64,000 bases of DNA, taken from a plasmid. Shown in pieces: positions 7,396 through 7,908 of this stretch. The stretch's first letter is position 1; each line of letters opens with the position of its first letter. Under the pieces are notes generated by a model. That model was not told the DNA's origin and did not search any database. It saw only the letters and a list, made by a program, of their open reading frames with translations. Location: the NCBI RefSeq assembly GCF_053078305.1, contig NZ_CP166875.1; one strand, given 5' to 3'. Made by a program: the position numbers and the translations under genes.

Positions 7396-7908
7396 ATGAA
7401 CATAAGTGTGGAAGATTTGTTTCCGGAGTCATTTCAACGAATTAAAGAAGAAGAAGAAGCGAACAGGCCTGATCCTAACTGGTTTGCACATTTACCGCCT
7501 GAAAAAATCAATGCGTATATGTCCAAGTATCCTTTCAAATCCTTTGATGATATTCCTCTGGACAACAGTGGGTTGCAATACCCTTCACTACAGGAACTGG
7601 AGTTTTATTTTCCCCCGGCGGCCCTGGCTGCTAATTGCCATCAACTTCCTGAGAGAATGAGACAAAAGCCTGTGGTCACGATGATTAATGGGTTAACCCT
7701 GTTAAGGTCGCTTGGCGTTCAGGCTTTCAATATCGATCCACGCCGATGGCACAAAATTAAAACCTATTTAAGTCAAGGAACGATTGAATATCCACAAATG
7801 TCCGAAGACGGGAAAGTAATTATAGATGGCAGGCATAGAATACTACTTATTATGCAGATTTATAAAGTAACTGATGTTCCCGTTTTTTTTCTGAAAGGAA
7901 TAAGCTGA
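7396..7908 (+). CDS. Hypothetical protein (170 aa) with a ParB/Srx-like DGRHR motif near the C-terminus
   Basis: ORF with RBS GGGAGG 8 nt upstream of ATG 7396; motif VIIDGRHRI resembles the ParB-like nuclease/sulfiredoxin fold signature; low-GC context next to the colicin island. Confidence 0.55.
   Translation: MNISVEDLFPESFQRIKEEEEANRPDPNWFAHLPPEKINAYMSKYPFKSFDDIPLDNSGLQYPSLQELEFYFPPAALAANCHQLPERMRQKPVVTMINGLTLLRSLGVQAFNIDPRRWHKIKTYLSQGTIEYPQMSEDGKVIIDGRHRILLIMQIYKVTDVPVFFLKGIS

Follow-up and report, generated by a model that had tools for sequence, protein, structure and literature searches.

A stand-alone ParB/Srx-fold protein next to the colicin BM genes of an F-like plasmid: a putative NTP-dependent enzyme or switch of mobile elements

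The 170-aa open reading frame (ORF) at 7396–7908 (+ strand, stop codon included) of an F-like conjugative plasmid, analysed here over a window of 64,000 nucleotides (the whole stretch of DNA under study; RefSeq contig NZ_CP166875.1), encodes a stand-alone ParB/sulfiredoxin (ParB/Srx)-fold protein (WP_001027529.1), as judged from the ORF list, RefSeq, dN/dS and AlphaFold. Taken as a whole, the reading that this protein is an NTP-binding ParB/Srx enzyme or switch serving mobile-element conflict or maintenance is given a probability of roughly 0.6. It belongs to an uncurated family that makes up one solo-domain branch of a well-known superfamily; searches of the literature by motif, by accession and by the genes flanking colicin BM returned nothing on the protein.

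Translation begins at an ATG at 7396, 7 nt behind a strong Shine–Dalgarno sequence (AAGGGAGGA, 7380–7388, + strand) that can be read directly from the DNA, and the identical start is annotated by RefSeq in identical plasmid blocks, where the product is labelled 'hypothetical protein' only. The gene has a GC content of 40.7% (GC3 38.6%), where the window as a whole has 51.2% and the leading region beside it 56.9%, and the motif VIIDGRHRI occupies residues 141–149 (nt 7816–7842), confirming the original prediction of a low-GC ORF of 170 aa carrying this motif. An exhaustive profile search of 1.84 billion protein cluster representatives (clusters at 50% identity; cut-off E ≤ 1e-3) recovered 71 relatives, with sizes of 140–210 aa or fragments; a scan of IMG/VR phage contigs with a closer alignment found none. 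Across an alignment of 43 homologs, extending to 18–25% identity, no substitution is seen at P54 or in G145-R146-H147-R148, R117, G128 and P133 hardly vary, and most members have D144. The gene is under purifying selection and is more than a chance ORF, because dN/dS is 0.15 (against a homolog 85% identical), 71 clusters match the profile and the GRHR tetrad is invariant. A 154-aa ORF just upstream of the recombinase gene (1995–2459) was considered as a paralog and rejected.

AlphaFold models of the protein reached a pLDDT of 87.2 with 12 sequences and 94.4 with 43 sequences, both showing the same order of secondary structure, in which a strand at 142–144 is followed by the motif opening a helix at 146–156. 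Searched with the confident model, two structure-comparison methods, in three concordant searches, ranked ParB/Srx-fold proteins first: the top ranks of Foldseek against the PDB were held by pNOB8 ParB-N (probability 0.91) and Osa (0.77), the ParB-like adaptor PadC was among the structural matches, and the named matches among viral models were mostly ParB/Sulfiredoxin-domain proteins (best E 6.8e-4). As a single sequence, the ORF protein matched none of the Pfam, NCBIfam, PHROG and PADLOC models or PDB sequences, and the curated clan models (PF02195, PF03235, PF22162 and others) gave nothing at E ≤ 10; it fits no curated family. The family profile, searched against the PDB, matched three SbnI entries and nothing else (best E 0.0077), in an alignment of ~68 residues that pairs P-x-R with P-x-R and DGRHR with DGVHR, and single family members weakly matched PFIN (E 0.0016), GmrSD_N (E 0.0073) and the ParB-like phrog_1033 (E 5e-4), all of the ParB/Srx superfamily. 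The ParB/Srx likeness first proposed from the motif is therefore borne out by structure prediction, with both structure methods and the SbnI-only profile match in agreement.

The modelled alpha/beta core is superposable on ParB-N or sulfiredoxin, and the codons of D144-G145-R146-H147-R148 (7825–7839, + strand) specify a GxxR phosphate-binding (P / Box II) motif located at a strand-to-helix junction, as supported by the alignment, the models and the DGVHR of SbnI. Upstream, the alignment and the P-x-R of SbnI identify P115-R116-R117 (7738–7746, + strand) as a Box I-like P-x-R, followed by the conserved G128 and P133. To judge by the aligned residues, the resulting series P-x-R ... G ... P ... 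(I/V)DGxHR ... hydrophobic strand corresponds to the layout of ParB-N/Srx proteins. Both the H and the R of sulfiredoxin FGGCHR bind ATP phosphates (PMC4619093), and the Arg of GxxR is needed for NTP binding across the ParB-CTPase fold (PMC12704722); on the strength of this layout and these precedents, the ParB/Srx fold is assigned with high confidence, and binding of NTP by the ORF protein is proposed with moderate confidence.

The protein would be cytoplasmic and single-domain, with residues ~90–170 forming a divergent ParB/sulfiredoxin (ParB-CTPase-type) core and residues 1–90 a family-specific N-terminal extension. GRHR at the helix N-terminus, preceded by D144 and with P-x-R/G/P upstream, would make up the nucleotide-phosphate pocket of the superfamily, and from this match in motif arrangement we infer that an NTP is bound and its phosphate probably hydrolysed or transferred. 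The protein may then act as an NTP-dependent enzyme or switch on protein, nucleotide or DNA ends, rather than as a partition-type DNA clamp, since it lacks a helix-turn-helix (HTH) or any further DNA-binding domain and the family is for the most part acidic (pI about 5–6), an acidity that speaks against a general DNA-coating role. Its likely use would be in plasmid conflict or maintenance, with no functional tie to colicin BM.

Genes on the left side of the window follow the order tyrosine recombinase (PF00589, an IncF backbone gene; 2461–3243, + strand), cmi (3413–3766, + strand), cma (3816–4631, − strand), cbi (4875–5402, + strand), cba (5420–6955, − strand), colicin B promoter, ORF, parR and parM (8059–9374, − strand) and leading region, with the four colicin genes named after the RefSeq annotation of an identical plasmid block and their ORFs. 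The leading region carries a methylase, an antirestriction gene, ssb, a 652-aa ParB_N+HTH_ParB protein and psiA; the 652-aa product (18603–20561, between ssb and psiA) is a second ParB-fold protein, of canonical type, and is probably of the type that a 2026 preprint (PMC13370423) describes as YfjB/HerB. Sequences fitting CTGT-N8-ACAG with at most one mismatch number 50 in the window, against 22.5 ± 5.2 expected from shuffles, and many of them fall in the leading region, e.g. at 14922–19336.

Homology to the IncF backbone ends ~20–30 bp past the stop codon of the recombinase gene in more than 4,600 plasmids and resumes at the parR-proximal hairpin at 8005–8051 in more than 2,000; these edges therefore delimit an accessory block from ~3265 to 8000 in which the ORF is the last gene. 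Within this block, a ColE1-type segment (6955–7325) lies between cba and the ORF and comprises a cea-like colicin B promoter, a double LexA box (6999–7031) and what is left of the 5' part of a divergent ColE1 gene. In the colicin B promoter region the window is ~87% identical to ColE1-type 6.6-kb plasmids; the stretch in common takes in the double LexA box together with ~170 bp from the start of the gene that diverges from cea, annotated in ColE1-type plasmids as 'entry exclusion protein 1' or hypothetical. A 47-bp deletion breaks the window copy of this gene, which is then cut off at about 7325. The segment ends ~70 bp before the ORF start. Just past its end lies a candidate −10 element for the ORF, a perfect TATAAT at 7340–7345 (+ strand) with a weak −35 TTGTTC at 7319–7324, inferred from sequence only; consensus scans called neither a promoter nor a terminator for the ORF, this hexamer included.

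The position of the ORF raises the question of an unrecognised colicin BM component, with a role in release, regulation or extra immunity. Complete cbi and cba were found in 130 plasmids, and cba, the ORF and parR are contiguous in about 109–113 of them; the ORF also lies divergent from the SOS-controlled colicin B promoter, ~330 bp from the promoter and its SOS boxes (6999–7066), which agrees with its original description as sitting just outside that promoter. Against a colicin function, the remnant of the ColE1-type gene separates the ORF from the promoter, the only LexA-type box in the cba–ORF interval is that of the colicin promoter itself, leaving SOS control of the ORF unsupported, and nothing in the ORF sequence resembles a lysis lipoprotein. 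The colicin-linked copies all share at least 99% identity, which fits a single DNA block that spread recently, and homologs at 85% and ≤45% identity, in every other lineage, are without colicin genes. A colicin BM component is accordingly scarcely credible, and in view of the backbone homology pattern the co-travel of the ORF with colicin B reflects physical linkage. The view that the ORF stands outside the canonical colicin BM set thus holds, with its distant homologs never found with colicin genes; co-occurrence with the colicin locus held for the near-identical copies beside intact colicin B, and failed for the homologs at 85% and ≤45% identity.

Further plasmids (roughly 300, counted by the 95–99% identity band) have only cbi and the 3' end of cba among the matches sampled. 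Their matches (window 4824–5589) stop near 5589, and those sampled match nothing further towards the ORF. The combination of cbi with the 3' end of cba is a known truncated colicin B arrangement.

The left edge of the block brings the tyrosine recombinase into consideration, for which the ORF protein could be an accessory factor, for instance one that controls the resolution of plasmid multimers or the direction of that reaction. Two other plasmid lineages encode recombinases, 86 bp and 38 bp away from their ORF homologs, with which the window recombinase shares 45% and 51% identity, and these adjacent homologs are 42–45% identical to the window protein, a similar degree of divergence; the two pairs have opposite gene orders (L003 5995–7325; L023 1784–3297), and their plasmids carry no colicin genes. 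This adjacency of orthologous genes in both orders favours a connection, which nevertheless appears improbable when set against the presence of the recombinase in more than 4,600 plasmids and of a close ORF copy in only about 134, the absence of a nearby recombinase from most other family members, and the 4.1 kb that separate the two genes in the window. As the simplest reading, the recombinase–ORF pair would be ancestral and the four colicin BM genes, which sit between the two in the window, would have come to lie there later. A search with a chimeric query found no 'empty' recombinase–ORF site in plasmids; with or without an ancestral pair, the link between the ORF and colicin BM is physical, not functional. 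An earlier model of the block as a circularly permuted small plasmid was dropped once a plasmid with the recombinase followed by the ORF was found. The context offers a clue to the assembly of the colicin BM block, with a ColE1-type promoter segment and four colicin genes placed between a backbone recombinase and the ORF.

Upstream of the recombinase operon, a 29-bp unit (TTTCCCGCCGCGCAGATCCGGTTTCCGGC) forms an exact tandem duplication at 1615–1672, with a 15-nt inverted match to the unit inside the recombinase gene (2626–2640). The best-matching plasmids align only from about 1644–1679 onward.

At the right edge, just downstream of parR, the hairpin at 8005–8051 consists of a 20-nt inverted repeat with a 7-nt spacer. 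A hairpin of the same shape and different sequence occupies the same place downstream of parR in the non-colicin IncF plasmid pMEX01 (L015), and the repeat therefore belongs to the parMR backbone, where it probably serves as the terminator of parMR, preserved through compensatory change. Its candidacy as a recombinase core site or integration junction was rejected on account of the pMEX01 hairpin and of the left block edge, where no matching half-site was found. The ORF adjoins parR/parM here, and homologs lie upstream of ParA-like genes in L024 and L025 and near ParA in L018 and L022, which, together with the structural match to PadC, might point to a ParB-like helper that works alongside ParMR or ParA as an adaptor or regulator of partition. 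Such a role is very improbable: in more than 2,000 plasmids this parMR locus occurs and the ORF does not, the ORF is convergent with parR and shares no operon with it, and its protein is without an HTH, a ParA-binding motif or a dimerisation domain.

Among 5,426 complete E. coli genomes, 130 (about 2.4%) carry the gene, with 132 of 133 places on plasmids and 125 copies at least 99% identical. By tblastn against a plasmid collection, ~134 close copies are found in Escherichia and a few Klebsiella, ~68 homologs at ~44% identity in Enterobacter, Citrobacter, Klebsiella, Providencia and Photobacterium, and one at 30% identity in Pseudomonas. An E. albertii plasmid typed IncI-gamma/K1 (L002) has the complete stretch of DUF6404, recombinase, colicin BM, ORF and parMR at ~99.9% identity, and the block therefore moves between replicon types.

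The neighbourhoods of non-identical homologs (85% and ≤45% identity), in which no colicin genes were found, cover a range of settings. Replication and stability regions are represented by Enterobacter-type IncFII plasmids (ORF, tyrosine recombinase, relBE, DUF2913), an IncFII plasmid with RepA, a DUF7168-like gene, ORF and DUF2913, a Rep3 plasmid with SprT-like, ORF and ParA, and a metagenomic plasmid with recombinase then ORF, PemK/MazE, RadC and ParAB. Elsewhere, the homolog follows RepA, ProQ/FinO and DUF2913 and precedes a Gabija-like pair on a Providencia plasmid, adjoins mobilisation and TrbM genes on a Pseudomonas plasmid, lies on the opposite strand between blocks of type IV secretion genes in an ICE, is present in an IncI-like pil/tra region with ssb, belongs to a transfer-associated cluster (TraG_N, PcfJ, DNA methylase, ORF, DUF5131, SprT-like), or sits beside umuDC and a tail-fibre gene in a chromosomal island. 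All informative contexts are plasmids, ICEs or an island, and the family is a small, solitary accessory gene of conjugative plasmids, ICEs and an island.

Two features of these neighbourhoods are recorded as observations. A DUF2913 gene lies within 0–2 kb of the ORF homolog at five loci in three plasmid lineages (L003 8254–8853, L004 5252–5872, L016 5976–6575, L018 6329–6928 and L027 8574–9185), often accompanied by a weakly DUF7168-like gene. In the Providencia plasmid (L004 6745–9893), the pair directly after the ORF homolog encodes an AAA_15/AAA_21 + OLD-TOPRIM protein and a UvrD-type helicase.

Set against named systems of the same superfamily, the ORF family differs from each of them. Sulfiredoxin is a eukaryotic and cyanobacterial protein, not one of mobile elements. 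Its signature, F-(G/S)-G-C-H-R (PMC4619093), has the catalytic Cys at the position of Arg146, invariant in the ORF family, and identity as a sulfiredoxin was rejected for this substitution. The free serine kinases SbnI/SerK (5UJE, 5UJD, 6NR6, 5X0B), the only PDB likeness of the family at sequence level, have in common with the ORF protein P-x-R, G...P and (I/M)DG(V/R)HR, then a helix and a strand. Residue E20 of SbnI (6NR6), the catalytic Glu N-terminal to P-x-R, aligns at profile position 92, equivalent to F111 of the ORF protein and not acidic across the family; the kinases are also longer (~240–255 aa against 170 aa), with a C-terminal domain that the ORF protein lacks, and the siderophore or cysteine-pathway context of SbnI/SerK is absent around ORF homologs. 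A SerK/SbnI kinase was rejected on the grounds of F111 and the missing C-terminal domain.

The canonical CTP clamps ParB, KorB and HerB (YfjB), frequent on plasmids, share with the ORF protein an N-terminal NTP-binding fold with the GxxR P-motif. In the ORF model, the N-terminal extension and the ParB/Srx core take up the whole chain, leaving neither HTH nor dimerisation domain; HTH_ParB and PF02195 gave no match to the protein, a regular expression for the ParA-binding motif (L/F/I)G(K/R)G(L/F/I) found none in it, and Box III is absent, since the chain stops at residue 170, directly behind the final strand. A partition ParB was rejected for want of HTH, Box III, ParA-binding motif and PF02195 match.

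The stand-alone ParB/Srx ATPase-DNases Osa and FiwA are used by one conjugative plasmid to block the transfer of rivals, and the ORF protein could be their functional analogue, inhibiting fertility at the coupling protein or its DNA substrate. This is unlikely. Osa (with FiwA and ICE1056Fin in PFIN, PF22162; PDB 4OVB) has the motif DGMTR, with no His, in place of DGRHR, and the N-terminal parts of the two proteins differ; many members of the ORF family, moreover, lie in plasmid replication or stability regions, not near transfer genes. A profile–profile comparison of the ORF-family alignment with Osa homologs, collected with Osa of R388 as the query and aligned, gave an hhalign probability of 0.3%, HMM cross-searches were null, and neither PF22162 nor an NCBIfam model matched the ORF protein, so that membership of the Osa/FiwA family was rejected; a resemblance noted by eye (VNGLAFYR vs INGLTLLR) was likewise unsupported by hhalign and HMM searches. 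A new class of stand-alone ParB/Srx NTP-dependent effectors, used by conjugative plasmids and ICEs against rival mobile elements or host defences, is a tentative idea with the odds against it; if true, the ORF family would be a new fertility-inhibition or anti-defence family, sequence-unrelated to Osa/FiwA.

Parallels exist with orphan ParB-CTPase-fold proteins (PMC12704722) and DdrB-like ParB domains (PMC5512222), which are divergent, long-branch and mobile-element-borne with an intact P-motif, as is the ORF family. Orphan ParB-fold proteins being already known as common on mobile elements from these studies, the present result is useful rather than surprising: a putative NTP-binding ParB/Srx assignment opens concrete, cheap tests of a 'hypothetical' gene that ~2.4% of complete E. 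coli genomes have on F-like colicin plasmids. The surveys began from PF02195 or from polyvalent proteins, whereas the ORF family goes undetected by PF02195, and to the orphans so far surveyed it adds a solo-domain branch, with its own N-terminal extension, that is invisible to PF02195-based surveys of the fold.
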